Shown here: piece after piece, positions 6,878 to 24,062 of the stretch
Layout: the number at the start of each line of letters is the position of its first letter
Numbering within the stretch: position 1 is the stretch's first letter
Source of the DNA: Candidatus Eiseniibacteriota bacterium
GTDB lineage: Bacteria; Orphanbacterota; Orphanbacteria; Orphanbacterales; Orphanbacteraceae
NCBI GenBank assembly: GCA_043809585.1
Contig: JBDROZ010000073.1
Coordinates: 1-42,342, forward strand
Direction: 5' to 3'
DNA length: 42,342 bases
Position numbers and translations under genes: made by a program
The notes under the pieces: generated by a model
Told to the model about the DNA's origin: nothing
Seen by the model: the letters and a program-made list of their open reading frames with translations, nothing else
The model's database searches: none

Positions 6878-6903
6878 TTTTCAATCGGTTGGGAGGGCAT
6901 GGA

Positions 6904-7278
6904 TTGAATCTGAAGCGGCGGGAAGAGCGGGGCGTGGTGATCCTCGACCTGGAGGGGAAGATCCTGGGCGGGGAGGACTCGGAGGCGCTCCGCCGGGAGT
7001 TCGAGAGGGCGATCGGGGCGAGGACGCCCCGGGTGCTGGTCAACCTGGCGGAGGTTCCCTGGCTGAACAGCTCGGGACTCGGCGTGCTCCTCTCAGGGTA
7101 TCTTCGTCTCCTCGAGAAGGGGGGGACGGTGAAGTTCGTGAACGTGCAGGAACGGGTCCGAGGCATCCTGATCACCACCAAGCTCGTCCATGTCCTCGAG
7201 GTGTTCGACGATGAAAAGGAGGCCATCGACAGCTTCGTCCCGGATGGATTCGGAGCCGCCGATACTCCGAGACCGTAG
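6904..7278 (+). CDS. STAS-domain anti-sigma factor antagonist (RsbV/SpoIIAA family)
   Basis: VILDLEGKI..VNLAEVPWLNSSGLGVL with phosphoacceptor Ser; TTG start after GGAGGG. Confidence 0.9.
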   Translation: MNLKRREERGVVILDLEGKILGGEDSEALRREFERAIGARTPRVLVNLAEVPWLNSSGLGVLLSGYLRLLEKGGTVKFVNVQERVRGILITTKLVHVLEVFDDEKEAIDSFVPDGFGAADTPRP

Positions 7279-10129: not shown

Positions 10130-11279
10130 GTGGCCACGCCCATCACCCGCCGGAAAGCCGCGACGCCCGAGGAGATTCGGCTCGAGAGGGAAGTGATCGG
10201 GTCGCTCCACGTCGGGCTCGTGACCCTCGGCGCCGACGGAAGCGTGCTCGACATGAACCGGGCGGCGATGGCCCTGCTCGGCCTGCCGGCGGGGGATCCC
10301 ACCGGACGGCCCTGGCGGGAGGCCCTTCCCCCCGGAAGCGTGGTGCGCGACGTGGCGCGCCGGACCCTGCGGGAGCGGCGGGCGGTGCCGGAGGCGATCG
10401 GTCCCCTCGGCCTCGGTGAGGGGGCGGGGACGGCCCGCTGCATCAGTTCTCTCCTTCGGGATGAGCGGGGGGAGATCGGGGCGGTGGTGATCGAGTTCCA
10501 CGACGTCACCTCGCTGGTCCGCATGGAGGCGGAGGTGCGCCATCTCGACCGCCTCGCCACGGTGGGCCGCTTCGCGTCCGCCCTCGCCCACGAGATTCGC
10601 AACCCCCTGACCGGCATTTACGCGGGGGTGCAGTTCCTCGAAAAGACCCTGCCCGCCGAGAACGACGCGCAGACGAAGACCTACAGGATCATCCGGGAGG
10701 AGGTGGAACGCCTCAACCGGATGGTGGAAGACATGCTCGGCTCCGCCCGCTTCCCTGAACCGCGGTATCAGGAAGTCGACCCGAACGATCTGATGAGCAA
10801 GGTCGCGGCCCTCCTCGGGGAGAACGCGGCGAAGGGGGAGGTTACCATCGTCCTCGACGCGGACGAGACGCTTCCGCCCATCCGCCTCGACCCCGACCAG
10901 ATCTGCCAGGTCCTCCTCAACCTCGGACGGAACGCCGTCGAGGTGAGCCCCCCCGGGACGGAGGTGACCCTCGGGACCACGGCGTCCACCGGCGCGCCGG
11001 CCCGGGGCATGCTGCTCCCCGGGGGGTCCGTGCCGGGCGTCGAGTTCCGCGTGCGTGACCGCGGTCCCGGGATCGCGGCGGCGGAACGGGAGAAGATCTT
11101 CGAGCCTTTCCAGTCGAAAAAGAAGGGGGGCACGGGCCTCGGCCTGTACGTCGCCTTCCAGATCGTGGAGCGCCACGGAGGCTCCCTCTGGGTCCGCGCC
11201 GAGGAAGGATCGGGGGCGGAGTTCGCGGCGTGGGTTCCCTACCGCCGGCCGGGCGGCGAGAGGGGGAGGGAGGCGTCCG

Positions 11280-11293
<14 letters not shown>
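10130..11293 (+). CDS. PAS-domain sensor histidine kinase (NtrB/AtoS-like)
   Basis: N-terminal PAS, H-box AHEIRNPL, N-box NLGRNA, DRGPGI and GTGLGL. Confidence 0.92.
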
Positions 11294-12707
<1,414 letters not shown>

Positions 12708-14984: not shown

Positions 14985-17504
14985 ATGAACGGAGTGAGCC
15001 GCCCCCGCCGGGGCATCGGTCACGCCATCCTGATCGTCCTCGCCCCCGTCGTCGTTCTTTACGCCGTCGCCACCTTCCTCGCCATCGACAGGACTCCGAA
15101 CTTCGGAATGCGGGTCCGTTTCTTCCGGGTCATCCAGGTGATGTCGGGGGGCCCCGCGGACAGGGCCGGATTCCGGGTGGACGATCAGGTGATTACCCAG
15201 AACGGGATCTCCCGGGACGACATGCTCACCCTGCTCCGGGAGCACGGGCGGATCCGTCCGGGGGACGAAGTTCGATTCACCGTCGACCGGCAAGGCGAGG
15301 AGATCGAGCTCGTCGTGACGACCGCGACCATTGGCCCCCGGGACCGAATTCGCGTCATCTCGAGAACCGCCGTGGCCCTCTGCTTCCTTGCCGTCGGGAT
15401 CGTGGTTTACCGAAACCGGTTCGACCGGGTGGCGAAGATTTTCTACCTCGTGAGCGTCTTCTTCGCCTTCTATCTGATCGAGCCCCCCGCCACGGGGGAC
15501 GTGAGGCTTCAGATGCTGATCAAAATCGCCCGGGACGCGGCGATCCTCCTCCTCCCCCCCCTCTTCCTTCACTTCGTTCTCCTCTTCCCTCACGAGAAGA
15601 GGGTTCCCCCCTGGATGTTCTTCCTCCGCCCCCTCGGCGGCGGCCGGATCCGCTTTCCCCTCTACGCCGCGAGCCTCGTCCTCTTCCTCGTCGCCTCCCT
15701 CCTCACGGTGCTGATCTACACGACGGGAGAAACGAGCCCGGCCACCCTCGCCCTCTTCCAGCTTGCCGTCGTCCTCTATCTGTTCGGCTGCATCGTTGCC
15801 GGCGTGGGGGCGTTCTTCCACAGCTACGCGAAAACCCGCTCCCCGGTGATGCGCCGTAAACTGCGGGGCGTCCTCGTCGGCACGACGGTCGCACTCGTCC
15901 CGATCGTTTTCTTCAATGTCTGGCAGCAGATCCATCCGGAGGTCGAATTCGCATGGAGCGGGGCGGTCTTCCTCCTCGCCGCGGCGCTCCCGATCAGTTT
16001 CGGGCACGCCATCGTCCGGTACCGCCTTCTCGACATCGAGTTGATCATCAAGCGGAGCATCCTCTATACGCTGCTTACCGCGTTTCTCGCGATGACCTAT
16101 CTCGTCTTCGTCGAACTGGTCAGCCGGGTGCTCCGGCAGGTGGCGGGGAGCAGCGACATCCCCGCGACCCTCCTCTCCCTCTTCCTGATCGCCCTCCTCT
16201 TCTCCCCCACCCGGGAGCTGATCCAGAGATGGGTGGACCGGACGTTCTACCGAGAGAAGTACGAGCACCGGCGGACGCTCCATGAGTTCAGCACCGCCCT
16301 GACGTCGATCCTCGACCGGAACATCCTCCTCCGGCAGATGACCGAGCGGATCTCGACGACCCTTCACGTGCCGAAGGTGGCCGTCTTCCTTCGGGACCCC
16401 GCGGGTCCGGGGGGCCTCGTCCTCCAGGGGGAGACCGGCCTCGGAGGGCTCGATCCGGACCTCACCCGCTTCGACGAAAGCGACCGGATTCCCGGGCTCC
16501 TGAAGGCGAGCGCCGACATCCTCCCGGTGGAGCAGATGAGCGACGCCGAACGGGCCGAGTCGATGACGGCGGCGGAGCGGGAGCGGATCGGACGGCTCGA
16601 TTCCGCCCTTCTTCTCCCCCTCCTCTCGGGCGAGGAAATGGTCGGCCTCATCTCCCTCGGCCGGAAACGGTCGGGGGAGTTCTTCTCTCACGAAGACCGC
16701 CAGCTCCTTCGAACCCTGGCGAACCACGCGGCCCTCGCCATCGAGAACTCCACGCTTCACCACAACACAATCGAGAAGGAGCGGCTCGAACAGGAGCTCC
16801 GCCTCGCCCGGGAGATCCAGCTCGGGTTCCTGCCCGCCGCCCCCCCCGACCTTCCCGAGGTGGAACTGGCCGCGAGAAACGTGCCGTGCGAGGAGATCGG
16901 CGGCGACTACTACGACTTCATCATCACCCGCCCCTACGGGCTCGGCATAGCGATCGGCGACGCCACCGGGGACGGCGTGCCGGCGGCGCTTCTGATGGCG
17001 AACCTCCAGGCCTCTTTCCGCGTGGAGGTGGCGGTCCACCCCTCCCCCTCCGAGGCGCTCGCGAAGGTGAACACATTCACTTACCGGCAGACCCAGGACA
17101 CGCGGTTCGTGACGTTCTTCTACGGCGTGATCGATCTCAAGACGGGCCTCTTCCGCTACGCCAACGCCGGTCACAACCCGCCGATGCTCGTCCACCCGAT
17201 CGGGACATGGCGGTATCTGGACCAATCGGATCTGATTCTCGGAGTCGACCCCGGAACGGTCTACCGGGAACACGCGATGCATCTCTCCGAAGGGGACATG
17301 CTCGTCCTCTACACGGACGGCGTCACGGACGAGCCGAACGGGGACGACGAGAGCTTCGGTATGCTGCGGCTCGAGCAGATCGTGATCCCCAACCGGCACC
17401 TCCCCGCCGCCGAGCTGTGCGATCTGATTCTCCGGGGGGTGACCGAATTCATGGGGGAGGAGCCGGGGGACGACGTCACCCTCATGGTCGTGAAACTCCG
17501 ATAG
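14985..17504 (+). CDS. PDZ + multi-TM + GAF + SpoIIE (RsbU-like PP2C) phosphatase
   Basis: GGPADRAGFRVDDQV PDZ; about 8 TM helices; GAF ..LANHAALAIEN; GGDYYD, GDATGDG, NAGHNPP, YTDGV and DDVT motifs. Confidence 0.9.
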   Translation: MNGVSRPRRGIGHAILIVLAPVVVLYAVATFLAIDRTPNFGMRVRFFRVIQVMSGGPADRAGFRVDDQVITQNGISRDDMLTLLREHGRIRPGDEVRFTVDRQGEEIELVVTTATIGPRDRIRVISRTAVALCFLAVGIVVYRNRFDRVAKIFYLVSVFFAFYLIEPPATGDVRLQMLIKIARDAAILLLPPLFLHFVLLFPHEKRVPPWMFFLRPLGGGRIRFPLYAASLVLFLVASLLTVLIYTTGETSPATLALFQLAVVLYLFGCIVAGVGAFFHSYAKTRSPVMRRKLRGVLVGTTVALVPIVFFNVWQQIHPEVEFAWSGAVFLLAAALPISFGHAIVRYRLLDIELIIKRSILYTLLTAFLAMTYLVFVELVSRVLRQVAGSSDIPATLLSLFLIALLFSPTRELIQRWVDRTFYREKYEHRRTLHEFSTALTSILDRNILLRQMTERISTTLHVPKVAVFLRDPAGPGGLVLQGETGLGGLDPDLTRFDESDRIPGLLKASADILPVEQMSDAERAESMTAAERERIGRLDSALLLPLLSGEEMVGLISLGRKRSGEFFSHEDRQLLRTLANHAALAIENSTLHHNTIEKERLEQELRLAREIQLGFLPAAPPDLPEVELAARNVPCEEIGGDYYDFIITRPYGLGIAIGDATGDGVPAALLMANLQASFRVEVAVHPSPSEALAKVNTFTYRQTQDTRFVTFFYGVIDLKTGLFRYANAGHNPPMLVHPIGTWRYLDQSDLILGVDPGTVYREHAMHLSEGDMLVLYTDGVTDEPNGDDESFGMLRLEQIVIPNRHLPAAELCDLILRGVTEFMGEEPGDDVTLMVVKLR

Positions 17505-17633
17505 CCCGGAGGCCACCACCGGTCCGCTTTCTTCCGATCGCTCAATTTCCGAACAGGCTTGCCCGTCGTTTCCGTCACCGCAATCCTCTTGCATCCTCAT
17601 GTTTTTGCGAGAGTTAAGTCGATTTGTCCGGTT

Positions 17634-17648
17634 TGGCATCCATCATGC
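17634..17648 (+). promoter_or_regulatory. Putative sigma54 -24/-12 promoter
   Basis: TGGCAT-CCATC-ATGC with exact GG-N10-GC spacing, upstream of the small ORFs. Confidence 0.55.
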
Positions 17649-17756
17649 GGGTTCCTCCCTATTGCGGCTCAGGTTTCGACAGTCTTTTGCCGATCCTCAG
17701 TAGGAACCCGTGCCGCGGAAGAAACGCGGAGGGAATACCCAAGGGAGGTGAGGCCT

Positions 17757-17789
17757 ATGGGTGCCATCGACGTCATCTCGGATCCCTAA
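17757..17789 (+). CDS. Putative 10-aa micropeptide MGAIDVISDP
   Basis: Strong SD GGGAGGTGA just before ATG. Confidence 0.4.
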   Translation: MGAIDVISDP

Positions 17790-17812
17790 CATCGGGAAAT
17801 AGGAGGTGGCAG

Positions 17813-17872
17813 ATGTTCCCGTTCCTTTGGACGTTTTGGGGCATGTCGGACATTTTCTTCTGGATTCACTAA
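17813..17872 (+). CDS. Putative 19-aa aromatic-rich micropeptide MFPFLWTFWGMSDIFFWIH
   Basis: Strong SD AGGAGGT 5 nt before ATG; hairpin follows the stop. Confidence 0.5.
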   Translation: MFPFLWTFWGMSDIFFWIH

Positions 17873-17920
17873 TCACGAGGCCCGCGGCGGAAAGCGGGCC
17901 GCTATCAGGGGGTCGAACCG

Positions 17921-18040
17921 GTGAAGTACTTGGCGGCCACCATCGGAATCAGCGTTCTGACACTGCTCGGAGTCGGTTCCGGCCTGTGGTTCTGGTATTC
18001 GAACGGCTTTCCAGGGAACAGCGCCGGGATCCTCTTCTGA
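17921..18040 (+). CDS. Putative 39-aa single-TM peptide MKYLAATIGISVLTLLGVGSGLWFWYSNGFPGNSAGILF
   Basis: SD-like GGGGGT 7 nt before GTG; hydrophobic helix; terminator-like hairpin directly after. Confidence 0.5.
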   Translation: MKYLAATIGISVLTLLGVGSGLWFWYSNGFPGNSAGILF

Positions 18041-18052
18041 CCTCGCACTAAG

Positions 18053-18110
18053 GGCTGGGGAGGCGCGCCGCCCGGCGTACCGACCTCGGGGCCTCCCCAG
18101 CCGTCTTTTC
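18053..18110 (+). terminator. Putative intrinsic terminator
   Basis: GGCTGGGGAGGC...GCCTCCCCAGCC 12-bp stem followed by GTCTTTTC. Confidence 0.55.
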
Positions 18111-18132
18111 ATCCATGACATACTGTCGAACC

Positions 18133-18293
18133 GGAGTGAGCGGGGGGCTGGTTCCGCCCGAGCCCCGGGCGGAATGCGGGGGACATGAACTCGTTTCGTG
18201 TTTCCCGTATTCCTCCGGACGGGTATCACCCGCGAGCACAACTGTTCCAGAGCGCAGAGGAGGAGTCCGCGGAAGCCGCCGGCTTTGGAACGA
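18133..18293. repeat. Dispersed intergenic repeat, copy A (copy B at 35580-35743)
   Basis: Shared blocks GGARTGAGCGGGGGRCTGGTTCCGCCCGAGCC and TTCCAGAGYGCAGAGGAGGARTC at similar spacing. Confidence 0.75.
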
Positions 18294-18297
18294 GTAC

Positions 18298-19002
18298 CTA
18301 CTTCATCACCGCTGGCAAGGCGAGGAGCCAAGAGGCGCCGCGGTCCCGCACGACCAGACGGCCCCGGTGCCTCTCGAGGAACGACCAGGTGAGGGCCTGG
18401 CCCGCCCGGTGGGGGGTTCGGTGACGCCGGTCGGCGGGTCCCCGGCGCTCGAGTCGGACGAAGATCTCCTCCCCCTTCCGCGCGGCATCCACCGCGATCC
18501 GGCAGCCCGGCGCCGAGGAAAGCAGCTGCTCCCGAAGGGCGAAGCGGAGGACCGCGCGGGTCCATTCGCGGACCGCGCGCACTTTCAGGGGCTCGCCCGG
18601 AAGGTGCAGGTCGAGGACCATTCTCCTCTCCCGTGCCCGCGCCCCCTGCTCGTCCGCCACGTCCCAGATGGGAAAGCGTAGGTCGAAGTCCTCGTCCTCG
18701 AGACGTCCCGCCTCCTCCTCCTCGGCGAGACCGACGAGAGAGACCAAGGCCGAGAGAAACTCGGTCGCCTCCACCGCCGCCCGGAGTTCCTCCCGCTGAA
18801 CGCCCGCGAGCGGTCCATGCCCCCCCGCGAGAAGCAGTGCGATCCGGCGCTCTGCCTCGAGAAGGGGCGTGCGGAGTTCGTCGCAGAGAGAGAGGCCGGC
18901 GCGGCGTCTCACCTCTCGGAGAGGAGCGAGGGAAATGGAGCCGGTCGCGAGCCCCCCGTCGATGACGTCCCAAGCGGGAAACTTGGCGGAATGATGTGTC
19001 AC
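18298..19002 (-). CDS. Degenerate histidine-kinase-like protein (pseudokinase)
   Basis: LCDELRTPL resembles the H-box HELRTPL with His replaced by Asp; C-terminal GQALTWSFLERHRGRL resembles the HATPase G2 region; GTGA overlap with fliA. Confidence 0.6.
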   Translation of the reverse strand: MTHHSAKFPAWDVIDGGLATGSISLAPLREVRRRAGLSLCDELRTPLLEAERRIALLLAGGHGPLAGVQREELRAAVEATEFLSALVSLVGLAEEEEAGRLEDEDFDLRFPIWDVADEQGARARERRMVLDLHLPGEPLKVRAVREWTRAVLRFALREQLLSSAPGCRIAVDAARKGEEIFVRLERRGPADRRHRTPHRAGQALTWSFLERHRGRLVVRDRGASWLLALPAVMK

Positions 19003-20050: not shown

Positions 20051-20065
20051 GCAACGGTCATGCCA
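20051..20065 (-). promoter_or_regulatory. Sigma54 -24/-12 promoter for fliA
   Basis: TGGCATGACCGTTGC(T), near-perfect consensus; AT-rich IHF-like tract at about 20090-20120. Confidence 0.75.
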
Positions 20066-20335: not shown

Positions 20336-21724
20336 CTATCCCGAGGACTTGCGGGCCTCGTACTGGCGGAGCTTCTCCCGGAGGGTCTGGCGCGAGATCC
20401 CGAGGGTCTTCGCCGCCTTCGTCTTGTTCCCCCGGGCCCATTCCACGGTCTTCAGGATCTGAACGCGTTCCGCCTCGGAGAGGGGGATCGGGATGAAGTC
20501 TTCGTCCTTCTCCTCGATCTCGAACGACTCGGTCATTCCCGCCGAGATCTCGAGAGGCAGGTGCTCGAGCAGGATCAGGTCGTCGCTCTCGAGGAGGATC
20601 GCCCGCTCGATCACGTTCCGAAGTTCCCGCACGTTCCCCGGCCAGGAATACTCCTGAAGCCGGGCGCGGGCCGACGGAGATAGCCCGCGAATGTTCTTCG
20701 TCAGCTCCTTGTTGAAAATGTCGATGAAGTAAGTCGCCAGGATCGGGAGGTCCTCCGCCCGCTCCCGGAGGGGCGGGATGTAGATCGGCACCACGTTCAG
20801 CCGGTAATAGAGGTCCTTCCGGAAACGCTTCTCCGCGACCGCCCGCTTCAGGTTCTGGTTCGTCGCGGCGACGATGCGGAGGTCGACTTCGATGTCCTCC
20901 GTCCCCCCCACCCGCTTGAACCGCTTCGTCTCGATCACCCGGAGAAGGCCGGCCTGCAGATCGAGGGGCATCTCCCCGATCTCGTCGAGGAAGAGGGTGC
21001 CCCCCGTCGCCATCTGGACGAGCCCCTTCTTCTGGACCTTCGCGTCCGTGAACGCCCCCTTCTCGTGGCCGAAGAGTTCGCTCTCCAGAAGGTTGGCCGG
21101 CAACGACCCGCAGTTGATCTCCATGAAAGGTCCGGTGCGGTTCGGCGTACCGTGATGGACCGCCTTGGCGATCATCTCCTTGCCCGTACCGCTCTCCCCC
21201 TCGATGAGCACCGTGGACGCGGGGCTCTGGCTCACGCGCTCGACGATGCGGAACACGTCCCGCATCTTCTTGCTCGTGCCGAGAATGAGCCGGTCCGTTT
21301 GCCTGTTGCCGATCACGATCGGTTCGATCCGCTCCGCTTCGTGGCGGATCTCCGAGTCGGCCATCAGGTCCATGATTATGGTCACCAGCTTCTGGGGATT
21401 GATCGGCTTCTCGATCGAGTGGCAGCCGCCCATCCGGGTCGCCTCCGAGGCCGCCTCCGCGGTCTTCCGAGACGAGAGGACGAGAACGAGGGCCCCTTTC
21501 TCCGCCTCGCGAATCCGCCGGAGACACTCGATCCCGGGCATGTCGCGGAGTTCGAGATCGAGGACCACGAGGTCCGTCGGAGTCGCGATGACCGCCTCGA
21601 GTCCTCTCGCGCCTTCGCCCACCTCTTCCACCGCGTATCCGGCTTCGATGAGGGACGATCCGAGGGACCAACGCAGGCGTTTTTCGCCGCCGATCAGTAC
21701 GACGCGGGAAGGCTTCGTTTTCAC
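20336..21724 (-). CDS. Sigma54-dependent activator with atypical receiver (NtrC/FleQ-like)
   Basis: GESGTGKE, GAFTDA, LFLDEIGE, WPGNVRE and HTH; receiver acidic pocket reads LIGGE rather than LVDDE; start may be 21724, 21727 or 21745. Confidence 0.92.
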   Translation of the reverse strand: MKTKPSRVVLIGGEKRLRWSLGSSLIEAGYAVEEVGEGARGLEAVIATPTDLVVLDLELRDMPGIECLRRIREAEKGALVLVLSSRKTAEAASEATRMGGCHSIEKPINPQKLVTIIMDLMADSEIRHEAERIEPIVIGNRQTDRLILGTSKKMRDVFRIVERVSQSPASTVLIEGESGTGKEMIAKAVHHGTPNRTGPFMEINCGSLPANLLESELFGHEKGAFTDAKVQKKGLVQMATGGTLFLDEIGEMPLDLQAGLLRVIETKRFKRVGGTEDIEVDLRIVAATNQNLKRAVAEKRFRKDLYYRLNVVPIYIPPLRERAEDLPILATYFIDIFNKELTKNIRGLSPSARARLQEYSWPGNVRELRNVIERAILLESDDLILLEHLPLEISAGMTESFEIEEKDEDFIPIPLSEAERVQILKTVEWARGNKTKAAKTLGISRQTLREKLRQYEARKSSG

Positions 21725-21741
21725 CAAGAACCCTCCTCGGC

Positions 21742-22398
21742 TCAAGGGTTGCGGACGTCCGGCGGGGGGGCCGCCTCGTCCGGCGCACGGAGCAGTGTGT
21801 TCAAGAGGCGCTCCCGAACCGACCGGTCGAGGACGTCGATACGGAGGGTGACGGCGTAACGCTTCGGGTGTTCGGGGTCCCGGGTGACCCGGGCTACCCG
21901 GCCTTCCACGGGGAACGTCCCCCCCTCCGGATCCTCCAGCTCGACGACGAGGTCGGTGCCCAAGTCGAAGGGCTCCGGCACCCGGCGAAGCTGGATTGTC
22001 CCCTCTCCGTTCCGCTCCGGCGGATCGGCGCGGCGGAGGGTCCGCTCGGCGCGCACCTCGTACTTCGATTCAATCTCCGCGAGCACGATGGCCCGGGCGG
22101 TGCGTTCCACGGGCGTCAGGTCTGCCGGCCGCCGGATCACGAGATACGGCGACGAATCCTTGAAGTGCTCGGCCAGCTTGGAGGATCCGAGGTGAGGTTC
22201 GCCCTTCCAGTAGGTGCGAAGCGTGATCCCGGTCCCCTTGAGCAGGTCGACAAAGCGGAGCGGATCGAACCCGGGCACGTGGAGCACCAGATTGCGCTCG
22301 TCCGCCTGGCTCACCTGGGCCCGGTAGATCTTGTTGTCGATCCGCTCGCCGATGGAGATTTCCATGATCTGGCCGGCGAGGAAAGGACCACGATTCAT
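21742..22398 (-). CDS. YcgR/flagellar-brake-like protein with degenerate PilZ domain
   Basis: N-terminal PilZN-like pattern (IYRAQV..LVLHVP..PYLVIRRP) and C-terminal VEGRVARV..RERLLNTL; RxxxR and DxSxxG absent. Confidence 0.6.
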   Translation of the reverse strand: MNRGPFLAGQIMEISIGERIDNKIYRAQVSQADERNLVLHVPGFDPLRFVDLLKGTGITLRTYWKGEPHLGSSKLAEHFKDSSPYLVIRRPADLTPVERTARAIVLAEIESKYEVRAERTLRRADPPERNGEGTIQLRRVPEPFDLGTDLVVELEDPEGGTFPVEGRVARVTRDPEHPKRYAVTLRIDVLDRSVRERLLNTLLRAPDEAAPPPDVRNP

Positions 22399-23332: not shown

Positions 23333-23584
23333 TCAATCCTCTTCCTCGATCGCCTCGAACAGGTCTTCCACGCCGGGAATCCGGGAGAGCGTCGCCTTGT
23401 GGTTCTCCGCGGCGACCGCCTCGACCAGCTCCCGGGGCGCGACGGTCACGGAGCCCGGAACCCAGCAACGAAGCCGGACACGGCCGCCCTTCATCGACTC
23501 GACGAGCACCTCGATGGAGTCGCCGATCAGAAAGCTCTCCCCCGCCCGGCGCTCCACGGTCTTCTCGCGGCATGTGCGGCTCAT
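23333..23584 (-). CDS. csrA: Divergent CsrA-family protein with C-terminal extension
   Basis: RRAGESFLIGDSIEVLV..GGRVRL..P..V.V..RELVEAVAAEN; ATGA-coupled to fliW. Confidence 0.8.
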   Translation of the reverse strand: MSRTCREKTVERRAGESFLIGDSIEVLVESMKGGRVRLRCWVPGSVTVAPRELVEAVAAENHKATLSRIPGVEDLFEAIEEED

Positions 23585-24018
23585 GTCATCACCGTTTCCG
23601 CTTCCTGCCGCCGCCACTCCTCGAGAAGAGAAGCCCGCACCGAGAGACGCTCGTCTTCGAGAATGACCTGGGCCCCCACGCCGCTCTCGATGTTCACGAG
23701 CAGAGGGGCACGGAAATCCACGGTGATTTCCCGGGGATCGTCGGGCACCGTGGCGACCACGAAGACCCGGGCGTGTGCCCGGTCTTCGATCTCGAGCTCC
23801 TCCAGGAGATCGGGGGCGAGACGCACTTCGTAATCGGGAAGAATGACCATCGGCTCCAGGAGAGAGAACCGGATCTGGTCCCGCTCCTCGCTTTGAAGCA
23901 GATGAAAGGGATTCTCCTCGCCCCGCCCGATCAACCGGTACCGGGTCAGTCCGGGGAATCCGATCATGCCGTGAGGGATCCAGACCGCCGTCCCCTCTCG
24001 TTTCTTTGTTCGGGTCAT
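23581..24018 (-). CDS. fliW: Flagellar assembly factor FliW
   Basis: GMIGFP, PFHLLQS, P..ILPDYE, APLLVN and QVILED motifs; AAGGAGGT RBS. Confidence 0.9.
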   Translation of the reverse strand: MTRTKKREGTAVWIPHGMIGFPGLTRYRLIGRGEENPFHLLQSEERDQIRFSLLEPMVILPDYEVRLAPDLLEELEIEDRAHARVFVVATVPDDPREITVDFRAPLLVNIESGVGAQVILEDERLSVRASLLEEWRRQEAETVMT

Positions 24019-24047: not shown

Positions 24048-24062
24048 GCATGGCCCATGCCA
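24048..24062 (-). promoter_or_regulatory. Putative sigma54 -24/-12 promoter for the fliW operon
   Basis: TGGCATGGGCCATGC(A), GG-N10-GC; the predicted start falls just before the fliW RBS. Confidence 0.6.

Follow-up and report, generated by a model that had tools for sequence, protein, structure and literature searches.

Between positions 17634 and 18110 the window, by which is meant the entire 42,342-nucleotide stretch analyzed here (contig C73 of a 4.24-Mb, 97% complete genome of a Candidatus Eiseniibacteriota bacterium), carries a compact unit of three tiny open reading frames (ORFs), each preceded by its own ribosome-binding site (GGGAGGTGAGG, AGGAGGTGG and AGGGGGTC). The unit is best described as an enhancer-dependent sigma-54 transcription unit of about 0.4 kb, which would end at a strong hairpin. 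Two of its frames, ORF2 and ORF3, appear to encode membrane microproteins, and ORF1 appears to be a leader that gates the translation of ORF2. The probability that this description holds in all its parts, together with a general role of the microproteins as membrane modulators, is put at about 0.55. ORF2 and ORF3 represent an undescribed microprotein family.

A -24/-12 promoter element, three tiny ORFs each with a Shine-Dalgarno (SD) sequence, an internal hairpin and a terminator had all been proposed in a first-pass annotation of this DNA, and all are found in the sequence (Table 1). The start it implied for ORF1 was off by one nucleotide. The same annotation had maintained that none of the frames appears as such in the list of predicted ORFs. 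This is so for ORF2, listed only as the tail of an 82-residue frame with a TTG start, and for ORF1, the tail of a 76-residue frame; ORF3 is listed, at a minimum length of 20 residues only. Proteins of fewer than 50 residues routinely escape annotation, and gene calling will always miss the real length of ORF2.

Conservation of the unit

The unit occupies a 793-nucleotide gap between the phosphatase gene upstream and the end of the minus-strand fliA operon downstream. It had been said to converge on this operon, and indeed the last gene of the operon ends at 18298 on the minus strand. The unit is present as a single copy in its own genome.

Twenty-one sources were examined. After duplicates had been removed, these gave 11 distinct full units and two distinct solo ORF2-like genes. 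On inspection, the complete unit was found in all nine genomes of the family, the window's genome counted. A DNA search had detected the region in four of eight same-family genomes and in none of 32 more distant ones. The ORF3 profile matched eight of ten genomes of the phylum at E values up to 1 (genome G002 was missed by the first profile, yet carries the unit), and the ORF2 profile matched all ten Eisenbacteria genomes compared. One genome from each of about 185,000 species was scanned with a degenerate DNA version of the ORF2 core, and five contigs were returned, all with the full unit. They are titled Eisenbacteria (two), Gemmatimonadetes (two) and "bacterium" (one), and four of them duplicate loci of phylum genomes already compared. 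The same pattern found eight contigs among 241 million metagenome records.

An ortholog of the phosphatase, whose catalytic domain is of the PP2C type, lies directly upstream in all ten related full-unit loci. Downstream, fliA is convergent in each of the six loci that have a long enough flank, and the histidine-kinase (HK)-like gene that follows fliA is also among the neighbors where the flank reaches it. Its conservation in relatives shows that the arrangement did not arise by chance in a single genome.

The sole genome of a second family, G009, has an 18-residue ORF2-like gene with its own ribosome-binding site (locus L044, contig C28, 2033-2092, minus strand). This gene and the PP2C ortholog converge, with 87 nucleotides between the gene and the ortholog's 3' end, and an ORF of 587 residues precedes the peptide gene. 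No ORF1, ORF3 or sigma-54 site was found at this locus. Since both orientation and context differ, a local rearrangement seems to have kept the adjacency of peptide and phosphatase.

ORF2

ORF2 is 19 to 23 residues long in the full units, or 18 to 23 when the other relatives are included. It has the core LFTFWGLSDIFYWM, which across the family reads LFTFWG[LIM][SA]DI[FL][YF]WM[RH]. Summed pairwise ratios of nonsynonymous to synonymous differences (pN/pS) were calculated for the three plus-strand frames, and substitutions were counted by codon position; unit L012 was dropped from these and from the folding sets, as it is nearly identical to L011. For the 14 codons of the core in ten sequences, pN/pS is 0.18 in the ORF2 frame, against 2.08 and 1.17 in the other two, and the variable sites number 4, 3 and 10 of 14 at the first, second and third codon positions, respectively. 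The conservation reaches beyond the Phe and Trp codons, as Gly, Ser/Ala, Asp, Ile and Met are kept too, while the final residue and the stop codon differ among members, two of which are one residue shorter. In units L010, L011 and L012 the long TTG frame that runs over ORF2 in the window is closed one codon before the ORF2 start, showing that the short form is the conserved one.

Judged from these sequences, ORF2 is very probably a real gene, and it would then be among the shortest gene products with clear purifying selection across a phylum. The peptide has a grand average of hydropathy (GRAVY) of 0.93, eight of its 19 residues are aromatic, and it has one buried Asp. A minus-strand gene was considered as the cause of the conservation and was rejected: the variable sites are third positions of the plus frame, which coincide with the second positions of the open minus frame.

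Two other metagenome contigs (L034, 2918-2971, and L033, 606-665, both on the minus strand) also carry ORF2-like genes, for peptides of 18 and 20 residues, and on each the ribosome-binding site overlaps the stop codon of the ORF before it. L034 is clearly phage-like, having PHROG matches to a Sak4-like protein and a Holliday-junction resolvase; L033 has one PHROG match, of unknown function. The ORF upstream on L034 ends in a hydrophobic helix that resembles the N-terminal part of the longer members of the ORF2 family, and the two may therefore be a split or coupled two-helix protein. These longer members came from an exhaustive ORF2 profile search of 1.84 billion representative proteins, which gave six matches (P0006-P0011) with E values from 2e-7 to 6e-4. 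All six are singletons of 36 to 59 residues from unplaced metagenome contigs and have no informative names (one is called "hypothetical protein"); in five of them a hydrophobic stretch precedes the ORF2 motif, which lies at the C-terminus or close to it. That two unrelated metagenome contigs, including the clearly phage-like one, have nearly the same 14-residue core suggests an interaction under strong constraint.

The IMG/VR viral contigs, scanned with one strict and two relaxed patterns and under the guidance of a profile, gave no true relative. The single viral match, L039, was rejected as a chance match inside a larger ORF.

ORF3 and the hairpins around it

In all 11 units ORF3 is 38 to 40 residues long and keeps its start and stop codons, and residues M1, L13, G19, L22, W25 and G29 are invariant. 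Its pN/pS is 0.60 in ten sequences, with 0.89 and 1.60 in the other frames; in the six closer sequences it is 0.46, with 1.01 and 1.47 in the others. Like ORF2 it has a GRAVY of 0.93, and seven of its 39 residues are aromatic. These comparisons make it probable that ORF3, too, is a real gene. Five of 5.8 billion predicted proteins match it (the alignment used as query was headed by a natural 40-residue ortholog), and the only name among them is "hypothetical protein".

The first-pass annotation recognized no family for these peptides, in agreement with the searches made here. Neither ORF3 nor the 23- and 39-residue versions of ORF2 matched any family in Pfam or NCBIfam at E values up to 10. 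Between 17000 and 18700 Rfam gave, at the same limit, nothing close to a gathering score, only weak matches to mir-670 (E 0.12) and BjrC80 (E 3.3). The former falls in the repeat at 18128-18297, and the latter spans the terminator stem into this repeat. No description of the unit was found in the literature, as far as listings and the openings of abstracts show.

Downstream of ORF3 all 11 units have a stable stem (-33 to -50 kcal/mol), with changes on both sides at six of the 11 consensus pairs. A U tract is clear in only about five of these terminator-like stems. The dispersed, hairpin-forming repeat just 3' of the terminator (18128-18297) has about 60 matches in the genome, at 70-94% identity, and fills the interval from the unit to the fliA operon in the source genome alone.

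The hairpin between ORF2 and ORF3 is comparably strong in six of the 11 units (the window, L032, L010, L011, L012 and, more weakly, L037) and is weak or different in the other five. It is not a terminator, because no U tract follows it, and it is not a conserved part of the unit, because it is strong in only those six.

The leader frame and the ORF2 start

What is conserved in ORF1 is its start. The ribosome-binding site, a four-nucleotide spacer and the ATG are invariant across all 11 units, whereas the product is 10, 37, 39, 49 or 59 residues long in different genomes (the 39-residue version is in frame with ORF2). The pN/pS of ORF1 is 1.07 in ten sequences (1.08 and 0.88 in the other frames) and 1.93 in the five versions of ten codons (1.30 and 0.71 in the others). 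The earlier proposal of three micropeptides is thus upheld for ORF2 and ORF3, which keep SD sequence, start, stop and a synonymous pattern of change with frame-specific selection; ORF1 keeps its SD sequence and ATG, and its peptide is conserved in neither sequence nor length. In six of the 11 units ORF1 ends about 20 nucleotides before ORF2, without overlap. In genome G001 (L019, 1640-1756, minus strand) the ORF1 stop codon is lost and the frame runs on into ORF2, so that an extended form of 39 residues is possible beside the 19-residue one.

The body of ORF1 can fold onto the start region of ORF2. In the RNAalifold consensus, a CCUC tract in codons 7-9 of ORF1 pairs with the GGAGG of the ORF2 ribosome-binding site. 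When folded individually, all ten units give the same hairpin topology, with an unpaired probability of 0.00-0.40 for the ORF2 SD sequence; in most of them the hairpin covers the ORF2 start codon as well. The hairpin is more stable than 200 shuffled sequences in six of the ten units, with z scores of -2.7 to -4.4. In a structure-blind alignment 61.4% of the cells pair, compared with 55.8 ± 2.1 in shuffled alignments, none of 500 of which reaches this value, and with 42-49% when the partners are slid. The CCUC/GAGG stem of SD and anti-SD is paired in eight to ten of the ten rows. A linked change is seen between L010, which has CAUG..AUG, and L011, which has CACG..GUG: the substitution is nonsynonymous in ORF1 and preserves pairing with the altered start codon of ORF2.

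ORF1 would accordingly have to be seen less as a third peptide than as a leader ORF with a very strong ribosome-binding site that gates ORF2, an interpretation that these alignments and predicted folds favor at somewhat better than even odds. Ribosomes translating ORF1 would melt the hairpin and free the ORF2 start codon, so that ORF2 could be translated, a translational coupling of the kind known from mok and hok. The unit would then offer a clean natural example of leader-ORF gating outside toxin-antitoxin systems.

Promoter signals

Sigma-54 promoters are recognized by a GG (at -24) and a GC (at -12) ten nucleotides apart in a TGGCAC-N5-TTGC-like consensus. They are enhancer-dependent, with activator sites farther upstream, and drive flagellar class genes in Vibrio, Pseudomonas and Campylobacter. 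The element of the unit has the classical GG-N10-GC spacing. Nine of the 11 units fit TGGCAY-N5-NTGC, and the other two have C in place of the first T. Three sites of the form TGGCAY-N5-WTGC occur in the window, where 0.07 are expected, and none of 100 shuffled sequences reaches three. The variant TGGCAT-N5-ATGC has only four sites in the 4.24-Mb genome; one of these, as the first-pass annotation had pointed out, is the fliW promoter (24048-24062, minus strand), 30 nucleotides upstream of fliW. The third element of the window, TGGCATGACCGTTGC (20051-20065, minus strand), lies about 150 nucleotides upstream of fliA; should it be functional, sigma-54 would control fliA, too, in the source organism. 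The genome has rpoN (the Sigma54_DBD family occurs once, E 4.7e-63), and two proteins with a Sigma54_activat domain are encoded in the window (20336-21745 and 11055-12707), so that the genes for the sigma factor and for NtrC-type activators are present as in classical systems. What differs here is the cargo, which is two microproteins and not structural flagellar genes, and the position of the RNA boundary, which is off the expected start.

Alignment of the 11 units shows a block of the form CG-T-MA...CGRRCA just past the phosphatase stop codon, which is a candidate activator site (Table 1); no counterpart of this motif was found upstream of the sigma-54 promoters of fliA or fliW. The unit may plausibly be coregulated with the surrounding cassette.

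The leader of the unit may contain a second promoter, of the FliA (sigma-28) type. Its two boxes each match six of eight positions of the TAAAGTTT-N11-GCCGATAA-like consensus, and GCTMAVG...GCCGAT is kept in eight of the 11 units with a spacer of variable sequence. The flagellin contig has a canonical TAAAGTTT-N11-GCCGAT site. A simple scan for sigma-70 promoters and terminators between 17300 and 18500 gave no site of either kind on either strand; the terminator-like hairpin was passed over because its loop is longer than the limit of the scan.

The unit in RNA libraries

An index search found five RNA runs that hold small shares of the stretch. Contigs from four metatranscriptome runs, belonging to four studies, cover 17725-18079 in close relatives, at 90-99% identity to the window. 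One RNA-library contig of 353 nucleotides spans all three ORFs, from just 5' of the ORF1 ribosome-binding site into the terminator. On their 5' side all four contigs end within 17713-17728, one of them with adapter sequence and 12 nucleotides directly before 17725. This shared boundary, which falls at a small stem-loop (Table 1), hints weakly at a genuine end of an RNA.

Proposed role

Single-pass membrane proteins that bind larger membrane proteins include MgrB (which acts on PhoQ), SafA, MgtS, AcrZ and CydX. ORF2 and ORF3 resemble these in being shorter than 50 residues, unannotated, provided with one hydrophobic helix and encoded beside a regulatory system, with the partner here guessed from the neighborhood. 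They have no homology to them, and ORF2, at 18-23 residues, is shorter than these examples and consists largely of aromatic residues, together with a conserved Asp. Both microproteins would insert into the inner membrane and serve as small modulators within the motility and sigma-factor cassette. Such a role is favored because the peptides are hydrophobic and aromatic, the phosphatase is a constant neighbor and the window is rich in motility genes. Since ORF2 adjoins the gene of the PDZ-GAF-PP2C phosphatase even in G009, where the rest of the unit differs, the likeliest target would be the multi-pass membrane domain of this phosphatase. That the phosphatase or the motility circuit is the target is nevertheless a tentative suggestion, with the odds against it. 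A complex prediction for phosphatase residues 1-445 with ORF3 gave a score of 0.02, which counts for neither side. Flagellar hierarchies would gain a new layer were the microproteins to tune the phosphatase or FliA.

A number of observations weigh against the interpretation as a whole. In four of the ten folded units, the window included, the hairpin over the ORF2 start is no more stable than shuffled sequences (for the window z is -1.1, and 27 of 200 shuffles are as good). Covariation is modest, since 40 of 500 shuffles equal the count of pairs changed on both sides. The selection signal of ORF3 is only moderate. No enhancer motif common to the three sigma-54 promoters of the window, those of the unit, fliA and fliW, was found. 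The 5' boundary of the RNA contigs lies about 55 nucleotides past the expected sigma-54 start (near 17660, some 12 nucleotides after the GC) and about 17 nucleotides past the sigma-28-like -10 box; it fits neither predicted start, and neither promoter is therefore confirmed by these contigs. No contig from the four runs covers 17600-17724, which is not taken as absence. The contigs give neither strand nor level nor a reliable transcript start, and DNA might have been carried over into the RNA libraries. Translation, membrane insertion and partner are all predictions made in silico. The link to the phosphatase is one of gene neighborhood in a single small phylum and could be inherited order, and the ORF2-like peptides on L034 and L033 have no PP2C phosphatase nearby.

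Alternative interpretations

The microproteins might be real membrane proteins whose partner, for instance an envelope or flagellar machine or a stress response, is encoded elsewhere, their position being inherited gene order. The coding evidence for ORF2 and ORF3 would fit equally well, the Eisenbacteria genomes compared are all related and conserve their local gene order overall, and two contigs have ORF2-like peptides but no such phosphatase, while others encode the peptide as the tail of proteins of 36 to 59 residues. Yet in G009 ORF2 still adjoins the PP2C ortholog despite changes in orientation, promoter and partner ORFs, which a functional link explains more easily. A distant partner is therefore considered unlikely, roughly one chance in several.

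Somewhat less probable still, and the second of the two main rivals, is a module resembling a type I toxin, in which ORF2 would damage membranes and be silenced by the mRNA fold and a mok-like leader, with ORF3 as an accessory or immunity protein. In hok/mok-sok, known from plasmid R1 and from chromosomal loci, a hydrophobic peptide has its SD sequence hidden in the mRNA fold and is translated via a short leader ORF. The likeness is considerable: ORF2 is tiny (18-23 residues) and hydrophobic, its SD sequence and start codon are sequestered in all ten folds computed, a leader ORF with a strong start precedes it, and stable hairpins stand at both ends of the unit. ORF2-like genes also occur on two other metagenome contigs, one of which has phage-like replication and recombination genes. 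There is, however, no sequence similarity to hok/mok-sok; ORF1 stops about 20 nucleotides before ORF2 in six of 11 units, whereas mok overlaps; and a second microprotein, ORF3, is encoded with it. No antisense RNA was found, the RNA contigs being strandless. The promoter is of the activator-dependent sigma-54 type and is not constitutive or SOS-type, and no sigma-70-like promoter is seen on either strand of the 17300-18500 interval. The chromosomal position is fixed and single-copy across a bacterial family. ORF2 is also far more conserved than type I toxins usually are, its core being found in ten of ten Eisenbacteria genomes and on two unrelated contigs.

A more far-reaching version of the membrane-modulator interpretation is regarded as improbable. 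ORF2 would be a free-standing "plug-in" aromatic helix, from an ancient family common to bacteria and phages, that docks in a conserved multi-pass membrane machine, which here would be the sensor domain of the PP2C phosphatase feeding a FliA partner switch. If this were true, ORF2 would set the expression of motility genes, phage copies would take over that switch, and the leader-ORF gate would tie peptide output to ribosome availability as well as to sigma-54 activation.

The Phe- and Trp-rich composition of ORF2 and the hairpin between ORF2 and ORF3 in the window recall the attenuator and arrest peptides of the pheL, trpL, TnaC and SecM classes, in which a short ORF of this kind stands ahead of a hairpin and another gene. 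ORF2 would then be a nascent peptide acting in cis, by attenuation or ribosome arrest (in aromatic sensing, for example), to control ORF3 through the 17879-17900 hairpin. This is very improbable. Conservation extends over the whole peptide, to Gly, Ser/Ala, Asp, Ile and Met and not to Phe and Trp codons alone, whereas the C-terminus varies in its residue and its stop codon, two of the peptides being a residue shorter. The hairpin is strong in only six of 11 units and lacks a U tract, and ORF3 has a strong ribosome-binding site of its own. The gene downstream encodes a 39-residue membrane protein and is no aromatic amino-acid gene, and ORF2 occurs without ORF3 in G009 and on two metagenome contigs.

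Two last interpretations have hardly any probability left. The earlier suggestion of a precursor of ribosomally synthesized and post-translationally modified peptides, or of secreted signals, which the shortness and unusual composition of the peptides and the superficially leader-and-core-like ORF1-ORF2 fusion in G001 might recall, fits poorly because in ten of ten related loci the unit has no neighboring gene for a maturation enzyme, a protease or an exporter, the fusion is found in one of 11 units, the peptides have no signal peptide or double-glycine motif, and Pfam and NCBIfam gave no precursor family. A noncoding RNA, either a small RNA or a structured leader with incidental ORFs, would suit a short, hairpin-bounded unit seen in RNA libraries, and small RNAs dependent on sigma-54 or sigma-28 are known in other bacteria; it does not explain the frame-specific substitutions in ORF2 and, less so, ORF3, nor ribosome-binding sites, starts, stops and lengths conserved in all 11 units, and Rfam has no match. 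An RNA of dual function could still be accommodated.

Table 1. Positions of the unit's features and of the adjacent phosphatase gene in the window
Feature	Positions	Strand	Remarks
Phosphatase with PDZ, multi-pass membrane, GAF and SpoIIE-type PP2C domains	14985-17504	+	839 residues
Candidate activator (enhancer) site	17535-17558	+	weak, partly conserved block, about 80-100 nucleotides upstream of the promoter
Sigma-54-type -24/-12 element, TGGCATCCATCATGC	17634-17648	+	TGGCAT-N5-ATGC; GG-N10-GC conserved in all 11 distinct units
Candidate sigma-28 (FliA)-type promoter, TCAGGTTT-N12-GCCGATCC	17669-17696	+	inside the leader
Stem-loop CCGCG-N7-CGCGG	17713-17729	+	at the 5' boundary of the RNA-derived contigs
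SD and ATG block of ORF1, GGGGTGAKGCCTATG	17743-17759	+	identical in 11 of 11 units
ORF1, MGAIDVISDP	17757-17789	+	10 codons; ATG at 17757
Predicted hairpin over the ORF2 start	17765-17815	+	ORF1 body against the ORF2 ribosome-binding site (17801-17809) and start codon
ORF2, MFPFLWTFWGMSDIFFWIH	17813-17872	+	19 residues, 5 Phe and 3 Trp; aromatic, hydrophobic microprotein
Hairpin between ORF2 and ORF3	17879-17900	+	7-base-pair stem, 8-nucleotide loop
ORF3	17921-18040	+	39 residues, one predicted membrane helix; GTG start; ribosome-binding site 17907-17914
Terminator-like hairpin, then GTCTTTTC	18053-18064 and 18091-18102 (arms); extends to 18110	+	12-base-pair GC stem

Neighboring genes

The surroundings had been described as a regulatory cassette, and that they are a motility-regulation neighborhood is borne out by the fliA operon, the NtrC-type activator, and fliW and csrA with the same promoter variant. 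The unit thus sits in a compact cassette of an uncultured phylum that comprises a sigma-54 activator, FliA, an HK-like pseudokinase, the PP2C phosphatase and FliW/CsrA. The minus-strand operon beyond the gap encodes the NtrC-type sigma-54 activator, FliA and a 234-residue protein. The wider window also holds genes like those for PilZ/YcgR proteins, a second pair of kinase and activator, and a STAS-domain gene.

The 234-residue protein (18298-19002, minus strand), whose gene follows fliA, has no match in sequence searches of Pfam, NCBIfam and the PDB. Its AlphaFold2 model, with a mean predicted local distance difference test score of 79.8, is a histidine-kinase DHp-CA core, which Foldseek matches best to DivL (E 2e-11) and RetS. 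Where the H-box-like position would have His, the three aligned orthologs have D, E and A, and the protein therefore looks like a pseudokinase cotranscribed with FliA.

The STAS-domain gene (6889-7278, plus strand) lies 8 kb from the SpoIIE-type phosphatase gene, with FliA and the HK-like protein nearby. These four could be pieces of a partner-switching circuit.

The fliW gene (23581-24018, minus strand) is followed by a CsrA-like reading frame at about 23333-23560, which has a ...RRAGESFLIGDSIEVLV... motif. The ribosome-binding sites of the microprotein unit contain GGA and could be targets of CsrA.

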